A stretch of DNA of 64,000 nt from Nitrospirota bacterium (GTDB taxonomy: Bacteria; Nitrospirota; Nitrospiria; 2-01-FULL-66-17). The notes beneath the pieces were generated by a model, which made no database searches, was not told where the DNA came from, and worked only from the letters and a program-made list of their open reading frames with translations. The position numbers and the translations under genes are program-made. The stretch is taken from positions 87,560-151,559 of the forward strand of contig JBMOMD010000021.1 of the NCBI GenBank assembly GCA_049325295.1, written 5' to 3'. Of the stretch, positions 3,937-43,273 are shown piece by piece (the first letter of the stretch is position 1; the number at the start of each line of letters is the position of its first letter).

Positions 3937-4572
3937 ATGCGCGTCACCGAGATCTTCCACAGCATTCAGGGCGAATCCACCTACGCGGGCCTGCCGTGCG
4001 CGTTCGTGCGCGTGACGGGTTGTCCCCTGCGATGCATCTGGTGCGACACCGCGTACGCGTTCCACGACGGCGACGAAATGAGTCTGGATCAGATCATCGC
4101 GCGCGTGCGGGCCTTCGGGTCGCGGCTGGTGGAGATCACGGGCGGCGAGCCGCTGCATGACCCCGCGGCGTTCGAGTTGATCACGCGGCTGGCGGACGCG
4201 GGCTTCACCGTGCTGGTGGAGACCAGCGGCGCCATCGACATCGCGCCGGTGGACCCACGCGCCGTGATCATCATGGATCTGAAGTGTCCCGGCAGCGGGA
4301 TGGCCGACCGCAACCTCTGGAGCAATCTCGATCGTCTGAAACCCGGCGACCAAGTCAAATTCGTGCTCAAGGACCGGGACGATTACCTGTGGGCTCGCGA
4401 CGTGTTGGCGCGCACGCGGGTCCACGAGCGGCAGGCGATCTTGTTCTCCCCGGTGTTCGGGGAGCTGGATCCGAAAGGGCTCGCGGAATGGATGTTGGAG
4501 GATCACGTCTCCGCGCGACTTCAACTGCAACTGCACAAACTGATTTGGGATCCCGCCGCGCGCGGCGTGTAG
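3937..4572 (+). CDS. queE: 7-carboxy-7-deazaguanine synthase (radical SAM)
   Basis: Internal ATG 'MRVTEIFHSIQGES' with the cluster motif 'CPLRCIWCDT', a typical QueE N-terminus. The upstream part of ORF 3772.. looks non-coding. Confidence 0.85.
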   Translation: MRVTEIFHSIQGESTYAGLPCAFVRVTGCPLRCIWCDTAYAFHDGDEMSLDQIIARVRAFGSRLVEITGGEPLHDPAAFELITRLADAGFTVLVETSGAIDIAPVDPRAVIIMDLKCPGSGMADRNLWSNLDRLKPGDQVKFVLKDRDDYLWARDVLARTRVHERQAILFSPVFGELDPKGLAEWMLEDHVSARLQLQLHKLIWDPAARGV

Positions 4573-7592: not shown

Positions 7593-8576
7593 TCAGGGCG
7601 CGAAACGGCGGGCGGAGGCCGCCAGCACGCGCCGCGCGGCCGCCATGTCCTCCGGCAACGGGGCCGTGAACACCATCGGGCGTCCGCTGATCGGGTGGAG
7701 AAATCCCAACTGTTGGGCGTGCAGGAGTTGGCGTCGAACCGGCACGTCGGGCGGCGGGACCCCGCGGCGGCCCCCGTAGACCGAGTCTCCCAACACGGGA
7801 TACCCCAGGTGGGCCATGTGGACGCGGATCTGGTGCGTGCGTCCGGTCTCCAACGTGATCGCGACCGAGGTCGCGCGTCCGAACCGTTCCACCACCTCAT
7901 AATGGCTGACCGCGGTTCGGGGACTGGTGGTACGGGCCGAAATCTTCTTGCGTTCCCACACGTCCCGGCCGATGGCCAGATCAATGGTGCCTTTGCGCGG
8001 CCGCACGTCGCCCGCCACGATCGCCAGGTACCGCCTGGCAATGCTGTGGATCTTGAATTGGCGCATGAGCCCGGTGTGCGCGGCGTCGTGTTTGGCCACC
8101 ACCAACAATCCGGAGGTGTCCTTGTCCAATCGATGGACGATCCCGGGTCGCGCCTTGCCGCCGATTCCGGCCAAGTCGCGGCAGTGGTGCAGGAGCGCGT
8201 TGACCAGGGTCCCGGACGCGTGGCCCGGCGCCGGGTGCACGACCAACCCGGGGGGCTTGTTTAGGATCAACAAATCATCGTCCTCGTATACGACCTCGAT
8301 CGGGATGGGTTCGGCGCTGATTTCCACCGGCTGCGGCGGCGGGTGATGGATGACGATCCGGTCGCCGGGTCGAATGAGGTACGATGCCTTGGTGGGACGG
8401 TCGTTGACCAGGATGAGACCGTCTTCAATACCGCGTTGGATGCGCGAGCGCGACACGGGCAGGCCCTGGCGCGCGAGAAATCGATCGATACGTTCCGAAG
8501 CCTCGCCCCCGGAGACGGTGATCTCGGTCACGGCGTCAGTGGACTCGCGAGCCTGCCCGTCGGCGTGTCCCCCCAT
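7593..8576 (-). CDS. rluD: 23S rRNA pseudouridine synthase, RluD family
   Basis: An S4-like N-terminus ('RIDRFLARQG..SRSRIQ') and the catalytic motif 'HRLDKDTSGLLVVAK'. No clear SD at 8576, so the start is uncertain. Confidence 0.85.
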   Translation of the reverse strand: MGGHADGQARESTDAVTEITVSGGEASERIDRFLARQGLPVSRSRIQRGIEDGLILVNDRPTKASYLIRPGDRIVIHHPPPQPVEISAEPIPIEVVYEDDDLLILNKPPGLVVHPAPGHASGTLVNALLHHCRDLAGIGGKARPGIVHRLDKDTSGLLVVAKHDAAHTGLMRQFKIHSIARRYLAIVAGDVRPRKGTIDLAIGRDVWERKKISARTTSPRTAVSHYEVVERFGRATSVAITLETGRTHQIRVHMAHLGYPVLGDSVYGGRRGVPPPDVPVRRQLLHAQQLGFLHPISGRPMVFTAPLPEDMAAARRVLAASARRFAP

Positions 8577-8607
8577 GGTTTAGGGGCCTGTCTGAATATC
8601 CCAGTTT

Positions 8608-8734
8608 GGCGCCTGGTCAGGGAAAGACAGATGCAAGGCGGAGGGAGGATCTTGCGCGCGGAGCGTACTGGGTCGTACGTGAGCACGCAAGACCGACCGA
8701 CAACGCCGCAGATGGCTTTCCATGGCCAGGCGCC
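8608..8734 (-). ncRNA. Unclassified structured intergenic element, copy A (four predicted helices)
   Basis: It shares three invariant blocks with 34815-34939 (opposite DNA strand). Helices P1-P3 differ in sequence but remain complementary. See findings. Confidence 0.55.
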
Positions 8735-9267
8735 TAGGGGCGGGCGGCTTGGCGCGCGTCGGGCTGGCGGTGCAGGAGCGCGTGGCCTAATAACATCACC
8801 ATGCCCACCGTGATGCCGGAGTCCGCGACGTTGAACACCGGCCAGTGGTATGGGCCGACGTAGAGGTCGATGAAGTCGATCACTTCGCCGTAGCGGACGC
8901 GGTCGATCAAATTGCCGATCGCGCCCCCGAGGATCAGCGACAGTGAGGTGACGCTCCACCAATCCCCGCGTTCCACGCGGCGGAGAAAGATGCTGATGAG
9001 GACCAACGCCACGACCGACACGATCAGAAAAAACCACGTGCGAAACGTGGGGTGCGCGTCCGCGAACAGGCTGAACGCTGCGCCGGGGTTACGGGTGTAG
9101 GTGAGATTGATCGAGGGGATGATCGGGATCGACTCGTGCAGGGTCATGGCGCGTTGGACCACGGATTTGGCCGCTTGGTCCGCAAGCACGATCAGCGCGG
9201 CGATCCCGGACGCCCACACGCCGGGCCGCCACGGGCGGGCGGCGTGGGAGCGCTCGTGTCCGCTCAT
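8734..9267 (-). CDS. lspA: Lipoprotein signal peptidase II
   Basis: 'NTGAAFS'-like 'NPGAAFSLF', 'GGAIGNLIDR' and 'FNVADSGITVG' motifs. The ATG overlaps the ileS stop (ATGA). The rest of ORF 8734..9999 is antisense noise. Confidence 0.85.
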   Translation of the reverse strand: MSGHERSHAARPWRPGVWASGIAALIVLADQAAKSVVQRAMTLHESIPIIPSINLTYTRNPGAAFSLFADAHPTFRTWFFLIVSVVALVLISIFLRRVERGDWWSVTSLSLILGGAIGNLIDRVRYGEVIDFIDLYVGPYHWPVFNVADSGITVGMVMLLGHALLHRQPDARQAARP

Positions 9268-22022: not shown

Positions 22023-22129
22023 GTGGCCGGCATGATACGGGAAACCCCGCAGGTTGCTCAGAAAGCGCCAACCGCAAGGCCGCAGCGAAAAGAAACCCGG
22101 AAAGCGCACTGCGCCGCATTCTGGCGCTG

Positions 22130-22314
22130 ACAATGGTCCGTTCCTCTCGCTTGGCGAAGCAGCGCACTGGGTCGCACGCGAGACCGCATCGTGTGCGGGG
22201 TGACGCAATATCCGCCGAGCGAGAATCTGCACCGCGCGGAAGGCGCGGCATCGAATCGGTCGCTTCCTTGCAGATGGCGAAGCAACGCCGCGGATGGACT
22301 TGGTCGGCAACCTG
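22130..22314 (-). repeat. Degenerate, expanded relative of the structured element at 8608-8734 / 34815-34939
   Basis: The core AGCGCACTGGGTCGCACGCGAG (22161-22182) matches copy A at 19/22 positions. CAACGCCGCGGATGG (22283-22297) matches at 14/15. Extra hairpins lie between these blocks. Confidence 0.3.
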
Positions 22315-24795
22315 CTACGGAAGGACAAGATTCACCAGGCGGCCGGGGACGTAGATCACCTTTTTGGGCGTGCGCTCGCCGACCCATCCGCGGATTTTGG
22401 GGTCCGCGAGCGCGGCGGCCACGACCTCGTCTTGGGACGCGGCGGCCGCCACCACGAGGGTGCCGCGTAACTTACCGTTGATCTGAACCGGCACCGTGAC
22501 GTGAGAGTCCGTCAACCAGGCGGGGTCCGCGACCGGCCACGGCTGCTGCGCGACCGACGGTCCGTGCCCCAACTCGCCCCACAGTTCGTCGGCCAGGTGG
22601 GGCGCGAACGGCGCGAGCAACACCGCGAGGGTATCGAGCGCCTCGCGCATCGCGGGGCCCACCCCCGGGGATTCCGTGGGTTTGAACTCCGACAACGCGT
22701 TGACGTACTCCATGAGCCCGGCGACCGCGGTGTTGAAGTGATAGCCGTCCTCGACGTCGTCCGTCACCCGTCGGATCGTGCGGTGCATGGCGCGACGGAC
22801 GCGGGCGATCGCCTCCTCGCTTGCGGGAGCGTCCGCGGCGCGGACCGCGCCGGGCTCGACCCACGACGCGACCAGTCGCCACACGCGTCCCAGGAAGCGG
22901 TGCACGCCTTCCACGCCCTCGTCGCTCCACTCCAGGTCTTTTTCCGGCGGCGCCGCGAACAAGATGAACAGACGGGCCGTGTCCGCGCCGTAGGTGGAGA
23001 CGAGTTGATCGGGATCCACCACGTTGCCCTTGGACTTGGACATCTTGGCCCCGCCCTTGATGACCATGCCTTGCGTGAGCAGCCCGGTGAACGGCTCGTC
23101 CGCGCGGATCAATCCCAAATCTCGGATCACCTTGGTGAAAAATCGAGCGTAGAGCAAATGAAGCACGGCGTGTTCGATCCCGCCCACGTACTGATCCACC
23201 GGCATCCATCGCGCCGCGGCGTCGAGGTCCAGCGCGCGCGGGCCGCGCGGGGGCGGGTGCGTATAACGCAGGAAGTACCAGGACGAATCCACGAACGTGT
23301 CCATGGTATCGGTCTCGCGCCGCGCGGGGCCGCGGCACGTCGGGCACGCGGTCTCCACGAAGGCGCGACTCTCGGCGAGCGGCGATCCGCCCCGTCCGGT
23401 AAACGGGACGTCGTGCGGCAACGCAACCGGCAGTTGGTCCTCGGGCACCGGCACGACCCCGCAACGATCGCAATACACGATGGGAATGGGCGTGCCCCAG
23501 TAGCGTTGCCGGGAGACGCCCCAATCGCGCAGGCGGTAATTGACCACACGCCGGCCGAGCTTGCGCTGTTCCACCGCCTCCGCGATGCGGCGCTGCGCCT
23601 CCACCGGCGGCAACCCGCAGAACTCGCCGGACTCCACCAGGCGCCCCGCCTCCTCGACGTACGCGGCGGACAGGTCCGACGCGCTCAACGTGCCCGCGGG
23701 GTTCTGGATCACGATCCGGATCGGCAGGTCGTGTTGTTCGGCGAACTCAAAGTCGCGTTGATCGTGCGCGGGCACGGCCATCACCGCGCCGCTGCCGTAA
23801 CCCATCAGGACGAAGTTGCCGACCCAGATGGGCACGCGGTCGCCGCTCAACGGGTTCACCGCGTACGCGCCGGTGAAGACGCCTTCCTTCGTCGCCGTGT
23901 CCGCGGTGCGCGCGCGGGGGTCTTGCGCGCGCATCCGCGCCGCGAACGCGCGCACCGCCGCGGCCTCGGGTTTGCCCGCGATCAGCGACTCCACCAAGGG
24001 GTGCTCGGGGGCCAGGGTCATGAACGTGACGCCGAAGATGGTATCGGGGCGCGTGGTGAAAATCCGGACCGTCTGACCGCCGCCCTCCACCGGGAACTCG
24101 ACCTCCACGCCCTCGCTGCGTCCGATCCAATTGCGCTGCATGGTGAGCACGCGCTCGGGCCAGCCCGTGAGGCGGTCGCACCCCGCCAACAATTCCTCCG
24201 CGTAGGCCGTGATTTTGAAGAACCATTGCGACAACTCGCGCGACGTGACCGGGGTGTCGCAGCGCCAGCACCCGCCGTCCACCACCTGCTCGTTGGCCAG
24301 CACGGTCTCGCACGACGGGCACCAGTTCACGGCGGAGAACTTCTTGTACGCGAGGCCGCGTTCGAACATCTTGACGAAAAACCACTGGTTCCAGCGGTAG
24401 TAGTCCTCGTCGCAGGTCGTGACCTCGCGCGACCAGTCGTAGGACACGCCCAGCCGTTTGAGCTGGGTCCGCATGTGCGCGATGTTGTCGTAGGTCCAGG
24501 TGGCCGGGTGTACGCCCTGTTTGATCGCCGCGTTTTCCGCGGGCATGCCGAACGCGTCCCACCCGATCGGGTGCAGCACCGCCCGTCCCCGCATCCGCTG
24601 GTACCGCGCGATCACGTCGCCGATAGTGTACACCCGCACGTGCCCCATGTGGATGCGGCCCGAGGGATAGGGGAACATCGCGAGGCAGTAGAACTTTTGC
24701 CGCGCATCCGGCTCGGGCGTGGCAAAGAGTCGGGACGCGTCCCACGCGGCTTGCCAGCGCGCTTCGATGGCTTTCGGCTCGTATTTGGGGTTCAT
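22315..24795 (-). CDS. leuS: Leucyl-tRNA synthetase
   Basis: Starts at '[15 protein letters not shown]'. It has 'HMGHVRVY' and 'KMSKSKGN' motifs. The 22 codons upstream in the ORF were discarded. Confidence 0.95.
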
Positions 24796-24829
24796 CGCGG
24801 CAATGCTCGAAAGTGCGTTGCGAGCGCAG

Positions 24830-24929
24830 CCCCCGCAGCTTGTTGCGGGGTAAGCGAGCAAAACGAAAATCGTGCTCGTTGATCTCCGCTCACTTCGAAG
24901 CTCCCCTGCAGCTTGCTGCGGGGAGCTTC
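24830..24929. repeat. Tandem REP-like hairpins in the leuS / DUF971 divergent region
   Basis: CCCCGCA-gcttgt-TGCGGGG (24831-24850) and GAAGCTCCCC(T)GCAG-cttg-CTGCGGGGAGCTTC (24897-24929), with a third small hairpin CGAGCA..TGCTCG between them. Confidence 0.5.
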
Positions 24930-33049: not shown

Positions 33050-34816
33050 GTGCGCGACAGCGTGCAAAGACGGATCGTCTTGTCGATCTTGATCGTCGGG
33101 GTGGCGTCCCTGCTCGTGGGCCTCTCCTTGGTCTACTTTGTCGGCAAGTCCACGCTCAAGCGGACCATCGGCGCCAATTTTCAAGAACTCGCCGACGTCA
33201 CGGCCAAAAAACTCGATGAACTGATCGATCACCACGTCGAACGGGCGGTGTTTTTGGCCGGTTTGAACGACGTGCTCGACGCGGTGCGACGGGCGAACGA
33301 CGAACCGGTCTCCCCGGCCGTTGACGTGCGTTTACAGGCCGTGTGGGCGCAGTTGGGCGCCTCGGATCGCGACGTGGCGCGGGTCGTGGACAACCCGGCG
33401 GCCAACGCGTTCCGCGCCATGACGCGGATGTCCGGCGATCCGGCGGCCGAACATCCGTCGCACGAGATCGTGATCGCGGCCGACGCGCACGGCCGCGTGG
33501 TGGCCGCGACGCGCAAACCGTCGGCGTATATCTTCACCGACGCCGTGTGGTGGCGGGAGGCGTACGCGAGCGGGCAAGGCCGCCTGTTTCTCAGCGACGT
33601 GTTGTTCGACGACGGGTTAGGCCGGTACGTCTTCATCATCGCCACGCCCATCCGCCGGGACGGCCGGGTCGAAGGGGTCTTGGCCATGGTGCACGACGCG
33701 CAGGCGTTCTATCAATGGGTCACGTCGATCCAGGTCGGGCGGACCGACCACACCATGTTGGTGGCGTCGGACGGGACGTTGTTGTTCTGCCCCGTGTTCC
33801 CGATCAAGAGCCATACGCTGCACCCCTCGTTGGTCGCGTCGATCGTCCAAGGGGGCCGGGGCTGGGGAACGACGCTCCACGACGTGCACTACCCGGGCTC
33901 GGAGGCGATCAACGGATTCGCGCCGGTGCGGGCGTCGACCTCGCCGGGGACGAATTTCGGCGGCAAGGCGTGGTACATCTTCACGAGCCAAGACCCCAAA
34001 GAGACGTACGGACCGGTCTACACGTTGCTGGGGTGGATCATCTTGTCCGGCGCGGCGGCCATCGGCCTGTTGCTCTTGTTGGGCTTGGCCGCGGCCAAAC
34101 GTATCGTCCGCCCGATCCGGATCGTGCAAACCGGTGCGCAGGCGATCGGCAACGGCAACCTGAACCATCGCATCCACGTCGACACCGACGATGAAATCGG
34201 CGCCCTCGCGCGGGGCATCAACGAGATGGCCGCCAAACTGTCCACGTCCTACAACGAGTTGGAGCGGATGGTGGAAGAGCGCACGCGGACCCTGGCGCAG
34301 CGCACGAGTCAACTCGAACAACGCAATCAAGAACTCTTTCTGCTGCACGCGATCGCCTCGTCCCTCAACAAGGCGCAATCGCTCGACGACGTGTTGGGCG
34401 AACTGCTGAACAAGGTGCTGGGGGGGGTGGAAGCGCACGCGGTGTTCATCGGTCTCGCCGAGCCGGGCCGCGGCGTCTTGTTGCACGGTCGCCCGCAATT
34501 CGTGGCGGCGCAGGATGACATGGCCCATCTCGCGGAGTCGGTGGTGCAACAAGTCTTGGGCGTCGGGGACCTGGTGGTGGTGCCCGATACCGGCGCCGAT
34601 CCCGGGTACCAGGCCTTTGCGCGGCAGGCCCGATCGCTGATCGGGATTCCCCTTCGCGCCAAGGAAAAGACGCTGGGCGCGATCGTGCTGGTGTACGTCA
34701 AGCCGCGCGTCCCGACCACGGAAGAGCGGGAGTTCCTCGCCTCGATCGGCCATCAGGCGGGCGTGGTGGTGGAGAATGCCCGGCTCTTTGGGCTCTTCAA
34801 GAATCTCGCCGGATAG
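33050..34816 (+). CDS. Membrane sensor protein: periplasmic Cache-like domain, HAMP, coiled coil, GAF; no recognisable output domain
   Basis: N-terminal TM, a second TM before HAMP ('IVRPIRIVQTGAQAIGNGNLNHRI..DEIGALARGINEMA'), and a GAF-like C-terminus ('LIGIPLRAKEKTLGAIVL'). No H-box, GGDEF or HD motif seen. Confidence 0.65.
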   Translation: MRDSVQRRIVLSILIVGVASLLVGLSLVYFVGKSTLKRTIGANFQELADVTAKKLDELIDHHVERAVFLAGLNDVLDAVRRANDEPVSPAVDVRLQAVWAQLGASDRDVARVVDNPAANAFRAMTRMSGDPAAEHPSHEIVIAADAHGRVVAATRKPSAYIFTDAVWWREAYASGQGRLFLSDVLFDDGLGRYVFIIATPIRRDGRVEGVLAMVHDAQAFYQWVTSIQVGRTDHTMLVASDGTLLFCPVFPIKSHTLHPSLVASIVQGGRGWGTTLHDVHYPGSEAINGFAPVRASTSPGTNFGGKAWYIFTSQDPKETYGPVYTLLGWIILSGAAAIGLLLLLGLAAAKRIVRPIRIVQTGAQAIGNGNLNHRIHVDTDDEIGALARGINEMAAKLSTSYNELERMVEERTRTLAQRTSQLEQRNQELFLLHAIASSLNKAQSLDDVLGELLNKVLGGVEAHAVFIGLAEPGRGVLLHGRPQFVAAQDDMAHLAESVVQQVLGVGDLVVVPDTGADPGYQAFARQARSLIGIPLRAKEKTLGAIVLVYVKPRVPTTEEREFLASIGHQAGVVVENARLFGLFKNLAG

Positions 34817-34939
34817 AGCCTGTCCATGAGCGGCCATCTGCGGCGTTGTCGCTGCGCTTCCGGTCCTCACGTACGACCCAGTACGCTCCGGTCCGGTGCT
34901 CGCTCCGCCTTGCATCTGGCGCGCTCCTGAACAGGCTCT
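34815..34939 (+). ncRNA. Unclassified structured intergenic element, copy B
   Basis: P1 34815-34823/34931-34939; P2 34828-34832/34922-34926; P3 34860-34866/34890-34896; P4 34870-34874/34881-34885. The invariant blocks are identical to copy A. Confidence 0.55.
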
Positions 34940-34971
34940 CCTTCCAGACGTCATTACGAGGAACACCAAGA

Positions 34972-35781
34972 ATGAAGGGAGACCTTCGTCCCCGCAAGTC
35001 GCTCGGGCAATGTTTTCTGACGGACCCGCGGATCGCGGAGAAGATTGTCGCGCTCGGTGATGTCGGTCCCTCGGATCGGGTGGTGGAAATCGGGCCCGGG
35101 CGCGGCATTCTCACCAGGCTGTTGGTCGAACGCGCGGCCGAGGTGACGGCGATCGAACTTGATCCGCGGTGGACCGCCGCGTTGCGTGAGGAATTCGCCG
35201 GAGTTGCCCGCCTGCGCGTTGAACAGGCCGACGCGTTGGCCTACCCGTTCGAACACCACGCGCCGGGCTTCAAGGTCATCGCGAATTTGCCCTATAACAT
35301 TTCCACGCCGATCCTCTTTCGTCTCCTGAGCCTTCGCGAGCGAATTGCCCTGATGGTCCTCATGCTGCAACGCGAGGTGGTGGATCGTTTGTTGGCGCGT
35401 CCCGGGACCAAGGCGTACGGCGCGCTCTCCCTGGCCGTGGCCTACGCCGCGGACGTCCGCAAGGGTTTTCCGGTGGCGGCGGGGAGCTTTTCCCCTCGCC
35501 CGGCCGTGGAGTCCGCGGTGGTGGTGATCACCCCGCGCGCCACGCCCGCCATTCTCGTGCGGGACGAGTCGATGCTGATGCGCGTGATCCGCGGCGCGTT
35601 TTCGCACCGGCGCAAGGTGTTGGCCAACGCGCTCACCGACGAGGGGTTTGAAAAACCCGCGCTCACCGCCGCGCTCGAACGGGCGGGGATCGATCCGGCG
35701 CGACGGGGCGAGACGTTGAGCCTGGAAGAGTTCGGCCGCGTGGCCGACGCACTCGTCGCTAGAACGTCAGCGTCAAGTTGA
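34972..35781 (+). CDS. rsmA: 16S rRNA (adenine1518/1519-N6)-dimethyltransferase
   Basis: Starts 'MKGDLRPRKSLGQCFLTD' and has 'EIGPGRGILT' and 'NLPYNISTPI' motifs. GAGGAA SD is present. Confidence 0.9.
   Translation: MKGDLRPRKSLGQCFLTDPRIAEKIVALGDVGPSDRVVEIGPGRGILTRLLVERAAEVTAIELDPRWTAALREEFAGVARLRVEQADALAYPFEHHAPGFKVIANLPYNISTPILFRLLSLRERIALMVLMLQREVVDRLLARPGTKAYGALSLAVAYAADVRKGFPVAAGSFSPRPAVESAVVVITPRATPAILVRDESMLMRVIRGAFSHRRKVLANALTDEGFEKPALTAALERAGIDPARRGETLSLEEFGRVADALVARTSASS

Positions 35782-43199: not shown

Positions 43200-43273
<74 letters not shown>

Follow-up and report, generated by a model that had tools for sequence, protein, structure and literature searches.

A dispersed hairpin-forming repeat, probably a TA-duplicating MITE, in the lspA-rluD spacer of a Nitrospirota bacterium

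We have analyzed the spacer between lspA and rluD in a 64,000-nucleotide stretch of DNA from a Nitrospirota bacterium (contig JBMOMD010000021.1 of assembly GCA_049325295.1), referred to below as the window. This spacer probably consists almost entirely of one copy, here called copy A, of a MITE (miniature inverted-repeat transposable element), that is, of a non-autonomous DNA transposon, belonging to a family abundant in GC-rich Nitrospirota. The unit is flanked by a duplicated TA and is present at some orthologous sites and absent from others. A preliminary description, made from the letters of the window, had reported an element of ~125 nt recurring on the opposite strand (copies A and B) and had read it as an element under selection for its secondary structure, probably acting on the transcribed strand. 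The recurrence is real, but the element is neither a feature conserved in these two spacers nor a dedicated regulatory RNA. It is a dispersed, high-copy repeat, bounded by terminal inverted repeats and flanked by TA, and copy A is not a riboswitch-like regulator of lspA or rluD. The element is a new family of an already known kind, the TA-duplicating MITE.

Insertion at the lspA stop codon and anatomy of the unit

Copy A lies between lspA (stop codon at 8734-8736) and rluD (ATG at 8576), in the order ileS-lspA-copy A-rluD on the minus strand, the genes being identified by Pfam. Copy B lies on the plus strand between a gene for a dCache/HAMP/GAF sensor (stop at 34814-34816) and rsmA (ATG at 34969), again by Pfam, and the orientation of the two copies relative to their flanking genes is identical. 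Copies of the family elsewhere were found with the exact 20-mer of the apex in a collection holding one genome per species; the loci, cited here by L numbers, were fetched as 8-kb blocks amounting to 0.79 Mb. Orthologous ileS-lspA-rluD loci were reached through homologues of RluD, and the site of copy B through homologues of RsmA.

In the orthologous loci L092/L093, L094 and L095, whose RluD is 79-86% identical to that of the window, the element is absent, lspA ends in TGA and rluD follows 5-7 nt further on. The locus thus does not need the element, and its absence from the orthologous spacers of these more distant relatives also tells against a locus-specific role. In L091 (RluD 89% identical) the element occupies the same TA and carries the same tail. 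With a slash marking each end of the unit, the junctions read ..GTCCC TA/GGAGCCTGTCC...CAGACAGGCTCC/TA GCCC GTG in L091 and ..GCCCC TA/GGCGCCTGGCC...CAGACAGGCCCC/TA AACC ATG in the window. The lspA stop falls at the same codon position in the window, in L091 and in the element-free relatives. If the unit and one TA are taken out, the window reads CCC-TAA-ACC-ATG and L091 reads CCC-TAG-CCC-GTG, in each case an ordinary tight junction. We regard this as the mark left by an insertion at the TA of the stop codon. In the window, the right TA together with A8580 represents the former stop TAA, 3 nt ahead of the rluD ATG (8576-8574), and copy A fills the spacer but for its last 7 nt. The site of copy B is likewise empty in L096 (RsmA 91% identical) and L099 (79%), while in L098 it holds a different internal variant. 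One assembly, GCA_040960215.1, contains both L094 and L095 (RluD 81% and 79% identical to that of the window, in one order or the other); it is probably a mixed bin or the product of two co-assembled strains.

The preliminary description had placed one boundary of copy A at 8608, whereas the element reaches 8583 (Table 1). Three further subfamilies, one of them from the Bacillota, are described below; A and B belong to the one that we call type 1. A type-1 unit of ~152 nt consists of an 11-nt left terminal repeat, GGAGCCTGTCC, a long imperfect hairpin with a conserved core, and a short tail of ~26 nt, AACACCCGAATACTCGGACAGGCTCC, in which the final 11 nt repeat the left end exactly, as its reverse complement. 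The right-terminus consensus of this type is accordingly GGACAGGCTCC, the reverse complement of GGAGCCTGTCC. Genuine tailed units measure 149-153 nt, and mostly 151-153. In copy A the match between the left terminus (GGCGCCTGGCC) and the right one (AGACAGGCCCC) is imperfect. Read in gene sense (minus strand, from 8734 down to 8608), its hairpin is GGCGCCTGGCCATGGAAAGCCATCTGCGGCGTTGTCGG...CTCACGTACGACCCAGTACGCTCCG...CTCCGCCTTGCATCTGTCTTTCCCTGACCAGGCGCC. Copy B has a tail that is degenerate or cut short, and its right TA may be the one at 34955-34956.

Table 1. Coordinates of the repeat copies, their parts and one further RNA gene in the window.
Feature	Position	Strand	Description
Copy A, full unit	8583-8734	minus	152 nt: 127-nt imperfect hairpin plus 25-nt tail
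Copy A, hairpin part	8608-8734	minus	P1/P2 outer stems, block 1 (CCATCTGCGGCGTTGTCG), variable P3, apical stem-loop CTCACGTAC-GACCCA-GTACGCTCC, block 2 (CTCCGCCTTGCATCTG); closed by an imperfect internal copy of the left terminus, inverted; drawn from sequence, folds, exact blocks and family alignment
Copy A, tail	8583-8607	minus	25 nt, ending in AGACAGGCCCC, the right terminal inverted repeat
Copy A, left-junction TA	8735-8736	minus	with G8734 (element base 1) makes the current lspA stop TAG (8734-8736)
Copy A, right-junction TA	8581-8582	minus	second copy of the target duplication
Copy A, shared block TCACGTACGACCCAGTACGCTCC	8660-8682	minus	
Copy A, shared block CCATCTGCGGCGTTGTCG	8698-8715	minus	
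Copy A, shared block CTCCGCCTTGCATCTG	8628-8643	minus	
Copy B, hairpin part	34815-34939	plus	type 1 like copy A, same layout, other P3 variant
Copy B, shared block TCACGTACGACCCAGTACGCTCC	34867-34889	plus	
Copy B, shared block CCATCTGCGGCGTTGTCG	34834-34851	plus	
Copy B, shared block CTCCGCCTTGCATCTG	34903-34918	plus	
Copy C	22049-22315 (approx.)	minus	degenerate type 2 member; right boundary uncertain
tRNA gene	43203-43273	minus	sole Rfam match of the window at the gathering threshold

A TA stands directly 5' of 37 of the 57 type-1 copies and follows 18 of the 24 that have a genuine tail. The usual layout of the junctions is C-TA/G...C/TA-G: C precedes the left TA in 34 of 57 copies, and G follows the right TA in 16 of 32 scored right ends, some of which are false tail calls. 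In L011, L075, L080 and copy A the outer bases on the two sides are unequal, so that TA alone is common to them; this favours a duplication of 2 bp and disfavours one of 4 bp (CTAG) as in IS5-type elements. The IS5 family includes subgroups that likewise duplicate TA, and one of these may be the source of the mobilizing enzyme. Units of types 2 and 4 have their own, different termini and tails (~27 and 77 nt, respectively) within the same TA..TA flanks, and one variant, L073, retains both ends around an unrelated interior.

These features are those of a MITE. The unit is small (152 nt between two confirmed genes, against an upper limit of about 300 bp) and has no coding capacity, the only open reading frames (ORFs) crossing copy A being short frames that overlap the GC-rich hairpin. 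It has terminal inverted repeats in type 1 and analogous ones in types 2 and 4; the target-site duplication is evident from the TA counts and the restored stop; and there are many dispersed copies, with empty orthologous sites in L092-L095, L096 and L099. Bacterial MITEs have been described as shorter than 200 bp, with terminal inverted repeats, TA termini, target-site duplications and transcripts forming long stem-loops (PMC2229807). Insertion at TA with a 2-bp duplication of TA, as found here, is also what is seen in IS630 and the wider Tc1/mariner/IS630 superfamily, where a TA within CTAG is preferred (PMC2170065, citing Tenzen et al. 1990 and Tenzen and Ohtsubo 1991). We therefore suppose that a transposase supplied in trans, a DDE enzyme of the IS630/Tc1-mariner type that targets TA, would have moved the unit by cut and paste to the TA of the lspA stop before this genome and the close relative represented by L091 diverged, and that the first G of the element would have rebuilt the stop as TAG.

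A dispersed family concentrated behind stop codons

The exact apex 20-mer matched at least 90 stretches. The hosts among the matches listed are five Nitrospirota metagenome-assembled genomes (MAGs) with many copies each, a sixth MAG assigned to the Nitrospiria, Desulforudis sp. Tu-874, two Bacillota MAGs, and one small contig that is probably misbinned; carriers include NZ_CP187479, the JBMOMC01 MAG, CAZMYW01, JACQCD01, MHEO01 and DAIRSE01. With a relaxed apex pattern, at least 115 copies were counted within the fetched loci. No match was found in viral contigs, phage records or plasmid records, and no DNA-level synteny was found between the window and the 90 loci. The literature was searched with the sequence itself and for MITEs of Nitrospira, and a description of the family was not found.

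The preliminary description had recognized two copies in the window, and there is a third, degenerate one. Copy C was detected as three collinear nhmmer matches to the family profile. Its ends are those of type 2 (TA/GCAGGTTGCCGACCAAGTCC), extra hairpin modules are nested in it and its apex is mutated (CGTGCGACCCAGTGCG); its first base is the G of a TAG stop (22315-22317), that of an ORF of 848 amino acids (22315..24861). Copy B also adjoins a TAG stop, that of the sensor gene.

Four subfamilies can be told apart by their arms: type 1, which includes copies A and B (GGAGCCTGTCCATGAATGG../..CCATTCCTGAACAGGCTCC), type 2 (GCAGGCTGCTGAAAAAGTCC../..GGAGCTTTTTGAGCAGCCTGC), type 3 (CTGGCCGCCGATAAGGCGGC..) and type 4, that of the Bacillota (GGAGACCGCTGAAAAACTGCG..). 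Termini next to TA in the family include GGAGCCTGTCC.., GCAGGCTGCTGAAAAAG.. and GGAGACCGCTGAAAAAC... In the Bacillota subfamily a 27-nt apex is exactly as in Nitrospirota, while the arms have diverged to roughly 60% identity by eye; its copies (L001, L002, L022, L023, L025, L060, L081, L089) form a unit of ~200 nt that has other arms, TA flanks and a tail of 77 nt. Within DAIRSE01 the copies are nearly identical, suggesting that they spread in a recent burst and passed between phyla, and the core common to subsurface Nitrospirota and Desulforudis points to horizontal spread across phyla. Copies can be locally dense. The segment L080:585-6701 has four copies in 8 kb; three share one orientation and are spaced ~1.8 kb apart, apparently one behind each gene of an operon, and the local density is far above average. 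At L005:1054-1290 the right half of the element is partially duplicated in tandem, with two apex-to-right-arm segments 95 nt apart, the second of which has a mutated apex.

The hairpin scaffold accepts optional modules of 30-80 nt, of at least eight kinds, at fixed positions; some have covarying stems of their own, and none was ever seen outside the scaffold in the sampled DNA. A 30-nt module occurs in L016, L019, L042, L054, L058 and L082, and one of ~45 nt in L004, L015, L021, L028, L065, L067, L069, L074, L076 and L091; further modules are carried by L014, L017, L045, L020, L087, L070, L033, L041, L044 and L072. The module CGGGAAGCAGCATTCGTCCGTCACGCTAGA occupies two different positions with its orientation unchanged, and GACCCACCTTCAAAAATCGAAATGCCGGAAGTCCCCGAAGGGGGC sits between TTGC and ATCTG. 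In two copies (L098:2300-2345 and L041:60-150) the apical loop is replaced or interrupted by perfect, GTAG-headed hairpins such as GTAGGGGCGTATGGCTATACGCCCCTAC, which resemble repetitive extragenic palindromic (REP) sequences and indicate that a second repeat family, of REP type, resides in the same genomes and has landed in the element.

Copies of the family adjoin stop codons. The longest frame that ends at the left junction typically spans hundreds of codons. When coding frames were filtered by their GC content at third codon positions (GC3), the left neighbour was a gene of the same sense in 69 of 92 cases, while the right neighbour had either orientation. In 22 cases a type-1 copy supplies the G that, with the TA before it, terminates a sense gene whose GC3 signature is that of coding DNA. 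Since base 1 of the element is G, insertion into the TA of a TAA or TAG codon rebuilds the stop as TAG and leaves the copy next to it. We infer that the adjacency to stops arises from targeting of TA in a GC-rich genome, together with the terminal G/C that remakes TAG on either side: with 65% GC, stop codons would be among the few TA sites where insertion does no harm, and copies would gather directly behind genes.

Several observations weigh against so simple a history. No transposase gene with matching ends was found in the 8-kb blocks around the copies. The empty sites have TGA and not TAA or TAG, and no sequence-identical unoccupied site is among those compared, so the TA duplication is read from the copies themselves and from the conserved position of the stop. 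About half of the type-1 copies have no recognizable tail or right TA, and type 3 copies have no TA flanks. An inner copy of the terminal repeat, differing slightly, closes the hairpin in place of the true right end, so that the hairpin is made with an internal pseudo-terminus and not with the two true ends. A classical MITE conserves its termini, whereas here blocks 1 and 2 and the apical stem are conserved and the termini differ across subfamilies, even between two phyla. Finally, copies are oriented with respect to the gene whose stop they abut, in a ratio of 22 to 4 (13 to 4 among tailed copies), the four opposite cases being antisense genes that end at the right junction. A symmetric insertion into TA does not predict this bias, which is a point for strand-specific selection.

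The preliminary description had named a match to a repeat or MITE family associated with a transposase or RAYT (REP-associated tyrosine transposase) as grounds against its reading; the element is a MITE-type repeat, although no transposase was found in the sampled loci. When the 1464 ORFs of these loci were clustered by comparing each with all others, no multi-copy ORF family emerged. Solitary matches to the terminal repeats in these loci fell in coding DNA or in more MITE copies, none of them beside a transposase-like ORF, and searches there with block 1 or block 2 in the absence of the apex returned only further copies, variants and chance matches in coding DNA. The type-2 ends (CAGGTTGCTGAAAAAGTCC) show some resemblance to the inverted repeat of the mariner element Himar1 (ACAGGTTGGCTGATAAGTCC; PMC8616859), in that between 8 and 77 of 5000 shuffles reach the score, the figure of 8 applying to the sequences given here, but this comparison was made post hoc and is a hint only. 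The same comparison found no resemblance to Himar1 for the type-1 ends, those of the subfamily of A and B.

A different enzyme can be imagined. The element might be a palindrome akin to REPs and bacterial interspersed mosaic elements (BIMEs), moved as a folded single strand by a RAYT-type (Y1 HUH) or an IS200/IS605-like enzyme; the TA (CTAG) at the left flank and at the right end would then be target and cleavage sites and not a duplication. We consider this very unlikely. Structure is indeed conserved rather than stem sequence, the apical stem is conserved, copies are oriented relative to genes, the family is mosaic as BIMEs are, and GTAG-headed REP-like hairpins exist in the same genomes. 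However, the unit is 150-200 nt long and not 20-40 nt, the GTAG/CGTC head is absent, clear terminal inverted repeats stand at both true ends, and no gene for a Y1 transposase with copies on both sides turned up in the 0.79 Mb, although no dedicated domain search was made. A REP in the strict sense was rejected on the same grounds, namely a size of 125-200 nt, no head, and no bracketed gene in the sampled loci.

Maintenance of the hairpin

The three blocks that copies A and B have in common, TCACGTACGACCCAGTACGCTCC, CCATCTGCGGCGTTGTCG and CTCCGCCTTGCATCTG, are exact, and each occurs exactly twice in the window. For the 23-mer block the chance expectation is 0 and no shuffle yielded any match, so that the recurrence reported earlier cannot be due to chance. 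Overall the two copies are 74% identical, and each folds as a single long imperfect hairpin with z scores of -5.5 to -9 against shuffles. On the 36-pair family consensus, 8 pairs are altered on both sides between A and B with pairing retained; the preliminary count of "about eleven" agrees with this once a few more, found by hand in P1 and P3, are added. The complementary P3 stems do differ between A and B as had been said, but in the register then proposed copy B has a T.T mismatch. Of the apical hairpin that had been called invariant, the stem and its flanks, CTCACGTAC..GTACGCTCC, are so, while the loop GACCCA varies within the family: copies found by way of other parts of the element have the same blocks and the same apical stem, and a loop of 5-9 nt that varies freely.

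The earlier claim that the helices co-vary extends to the whole family. Sixty clean copies were aligned blind to structure, and RNAalifold returned a consensus of 36 pairs, 23 of which show double changes. Standard pairs occupy 93.9% of the cells, compared with 78.3% in shuffles and 24-42% in slid registers, and the covariation score of 0.382 (versus 0.130) was reached by none of 500 shuffles; these cells are not, however, independent events. Type-1 copies with an unrecognizable tail are still 94% paired.

The comparison of copy A with its orthologue in L091 bears on single loci. When the two nested insertions of L091 are set aside, their hairpins differ at 7 of 127 positions (94.5% identity) and their tails are identical at 21 of 26, whereas lspA and rluD are 85% identical overall and 70% at third codon positions. 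The two copies have in common the unique derived characters GACCAGG, AAGATCC and TCAGACAGG, which indicates the same insertion by descent and one that was not simply overwritten by other copies. The few differences include a double substitution in P1, from A.T to C.G, and two changes in the left arm of the window's copy, to G at stem positions 9 and 15, that restore pairing with right-arm positions already mutated in the common ancestor. The structure of the hairpin is thus maintained by something, and the inference of selection on the helices is supported: the hairpin is actively kept and evolves much more slowly than synonymous sites. That inference is tempered by the behaviour of P3.

P3 variants and outer arms occur in varying combinations, the same P3 being found with different arms and different P3s with the same arms. 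At three pairs of orthologous sites (L057:1884-2003 and L084:2627-2746; L031:1004-1129 and L074, at about 4030-4160; window 34815-34939 and L098:2250-2470) the outer arms and blocks are near-identical but the P3 variants, each complementary, are wholly unlike. Such swaps come from gene conversion by another copy, or else the same rare TA received insertions more than once, and much of the P3 covariation between copies therefore reflects co-inherited arms or reinsertion and not stepwise compensation. It is a tentative possibility, one that we judge more doubtful than not, that covariation throughout is a by-product of the origin and recombination of the copies and owes nothing to selection on structure. 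Subfamilies would then descend from different master copies, patchy gene conversion anchored in the blocks would swap both arms of P3 at once, and hairpin-templated repair may in addition copy one arm from the other. The free association of P3 with outer arms, the three orthologous swaps and the non-independence of the covariation cells all fit this proposal. Against it, the different complementary stem variants had to arise somehow; copy A and L091 retain their shared derived characters, and so have not been homogenized, yet show compensatory changes and very low divergence; and the conserved asymmetric mismatches oppose any simple copying from arm to arm.

It is unlikely, in our estimation, that the hairpin core is itself the functional unit, spread by transposon ends. 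It could then be a structured RNA in operon or 3' untranslated region transcripts, serving as a stabilizer, a processing site or a protein-binding site, or else a folded single-strand DNA site, and copy A would be an exapted cis-acting element of the lspA-rluD transcript. The slow divergence of the copy A hairpin from L091 relative to the tail, the genes and their third positions argues for it, as do the in situ double change and the two pair-restoring ones, the persistence of pairing in tail-decayed type-1 copies, the conservation of interior blocks over subfamilies and phyla, the optional branch modules with their own covarying stems, the orientation bias relative to the upstream gene, and the excess of G.U over A.C in sense orientation. 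The tight lspA-rluD junction of the element-free relatives argues in the other direction, together with the absence of any Rfam match at any threshold, the more stable folding of the antisense strand and the freely varying apical loop, and conservation could also come from gene conversion among more than 100 copies. The fullest form of the idea would make the core a mobile structured RNA or folded-DNA module, under purifying selection at single loci, that rides on the ends of TA-transposons and has crossed between Nitrospirota and Desulforudis-like Bacillota; this is slightly less probable still.

The strand on which the hairpin might act was also considered. The preliminary description had taken a single G-T pair in P3 of copy A, which is C-A on the other strand, to point to the transcribed strand. 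This argument does not hold, given that the G.U excess draws heavily on one pair and that the antisense folds are the more stable. In gene sense the consensus pairs include 149 G.U against 49 A.C, of which one invariant pair contributes 60 of the 149. The fold energies are -74.4 (A) and -66.2 (B) kcal/mol in gene sense and -82.9 (A) and -76.2 (B) kcal/mol in antisense, where conserved C.A mismatches turn into G.U; it is conserved C.A and U.C mismatches in P1/P2 that make the antisense fold the more stable. The pair counts and the fold energies thus disagree, and we make no call on a functional strand.

The element had been said to resemble no named RNA family, and we concur. Neither the element in the 64-kb window nor any of 16 further loci covering all variants matched an Rfam family at the gathering threshold, the tRNA gene of Table 1 (59.2 bits) being the only match in the window. 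At a permissive threshold copy A matched only Twister-sister, with 14.7 bits (gathering threshold 34) and E = 1.9, which is the level of chance. None of the conserved core motifs of hammerhead, twister, pistol, hatchet and hepatitis delta virus (HDV) ribozymes or of domain 5 of group II introns fits the element. An intrinsic terminator was likewise rejected: there is no terminator-like site in 8300-9000, and in 34500-35200 there is none at the element, the three terminator-like matches of that region lying on the opposite strand inside the start region of rsmA.

We thus favour the MITE interpretation, under which the inserted element would be co-transcribed within the ileS-lspA-rluD operon and would form an RNA hairpin of about -70 kcal/mol. 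Such a stem-loop may be needed for tolerance or usefulness in the mRNA, through protection of 3' ends or processing by RNases, or for the mobility of the element itself. By analogy with Correia/NEMIS, ERIC, bcr1 and REP elements, reasons of this kind most likely account for the upkeep of the hairpin.

Relation to known elements

For annotation, the segments 8583-8734, 34815-34939 and ~22049-22315 should be masked as repeat copies. Left unmasked, the family would keep yielding "co-varying intergenic motifs" and spurious small ORFs in Nitrospirota bins. It offers a clean case of tolerated insertion, in which a TA-targeting element that begins with G lands in stop codons without destroying them, and this explains its positional pattern in a GC-rich genome. 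It also makes the upkeep of MITE hairpins testable, as between selection at the RNA level, a requirement for mobility, and gene conversion. A functional core, if true, would mean a new class of mobile structured element and not inert MITE baggage.

The attC sites of integrons, for example the 123-126-nt Vibrio cholerae repeats (VCRs), are imperfect palindromes of like length that start at or overlap the stop of the preceding ORF, and their structure is more conserved than their sequence. The element differs in that the RYYYAAC and GTTRRRY core sites are absent (its stem bases are GGAGCC../..GGCTCC, and GTTGTCG is unlike GTTRRRY) and in that its copies are dispersed in both orientations among housekeeping genes, with no intI cassette array; an identity as attC was rejected for these reasons. 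REPs and BIMEs with their RAYTs are also high-copy extragenic palindromes, located just downstream of genes, mosaic, and with co-varying stems, but REPs are 20-40 nt long, have the GTAG/CGTC head and are without terminal inverted repeats and TA duplication (PMC2817692, PMC3733652).

Closer parallels are offered by intergenic MITEs. The bcr1 element of the Bacillus cereus group differs in its 5-bp duplication, ends, host phylum and fold, but it is MITE-like, ~155 bp long, present or absent between strains and transcribed, with compensatory changes that keep its structure (PMC3184786). The Correia/NEMIS elements of Neisseria and the ERIC/IRU elements of enterobacteria are intergenic MITEs of 100-160 bp with TA termini that form long stem-loops in operon mRNAs, and the stem-loops of NEMIS have been proposed as RNase III targets that modulate the expression of neighbouring genes (PMC2229807). 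ERIC, at ~127 bp, is the same size as the hairpin described here. There is no sequence similarity to either; those elements are A+T-rich whereas this one is GC-rich, and their integration host factor (IHF) and promoter motifs were not identified in it. RUP (repeat unit of pneumococcus) and other IS630-derived MITEs differ in another way, since the ends of RUP match a known insertion sequence (IS630-Spn1) and no such parent was found for the present family, which moreover keeps its interior as well, closes its hairpin with an internal pseudo-terminus, lives in GC-rich hosts and is concentrated at stop codons. They are nevertheless alike in being small, non-coding elements with terminal inverted repeats, a TA duplication and many intergenic copies, presumed to be mobilized in trans by a transposase of the IS630 family (PMC2229807, PMC2170065).

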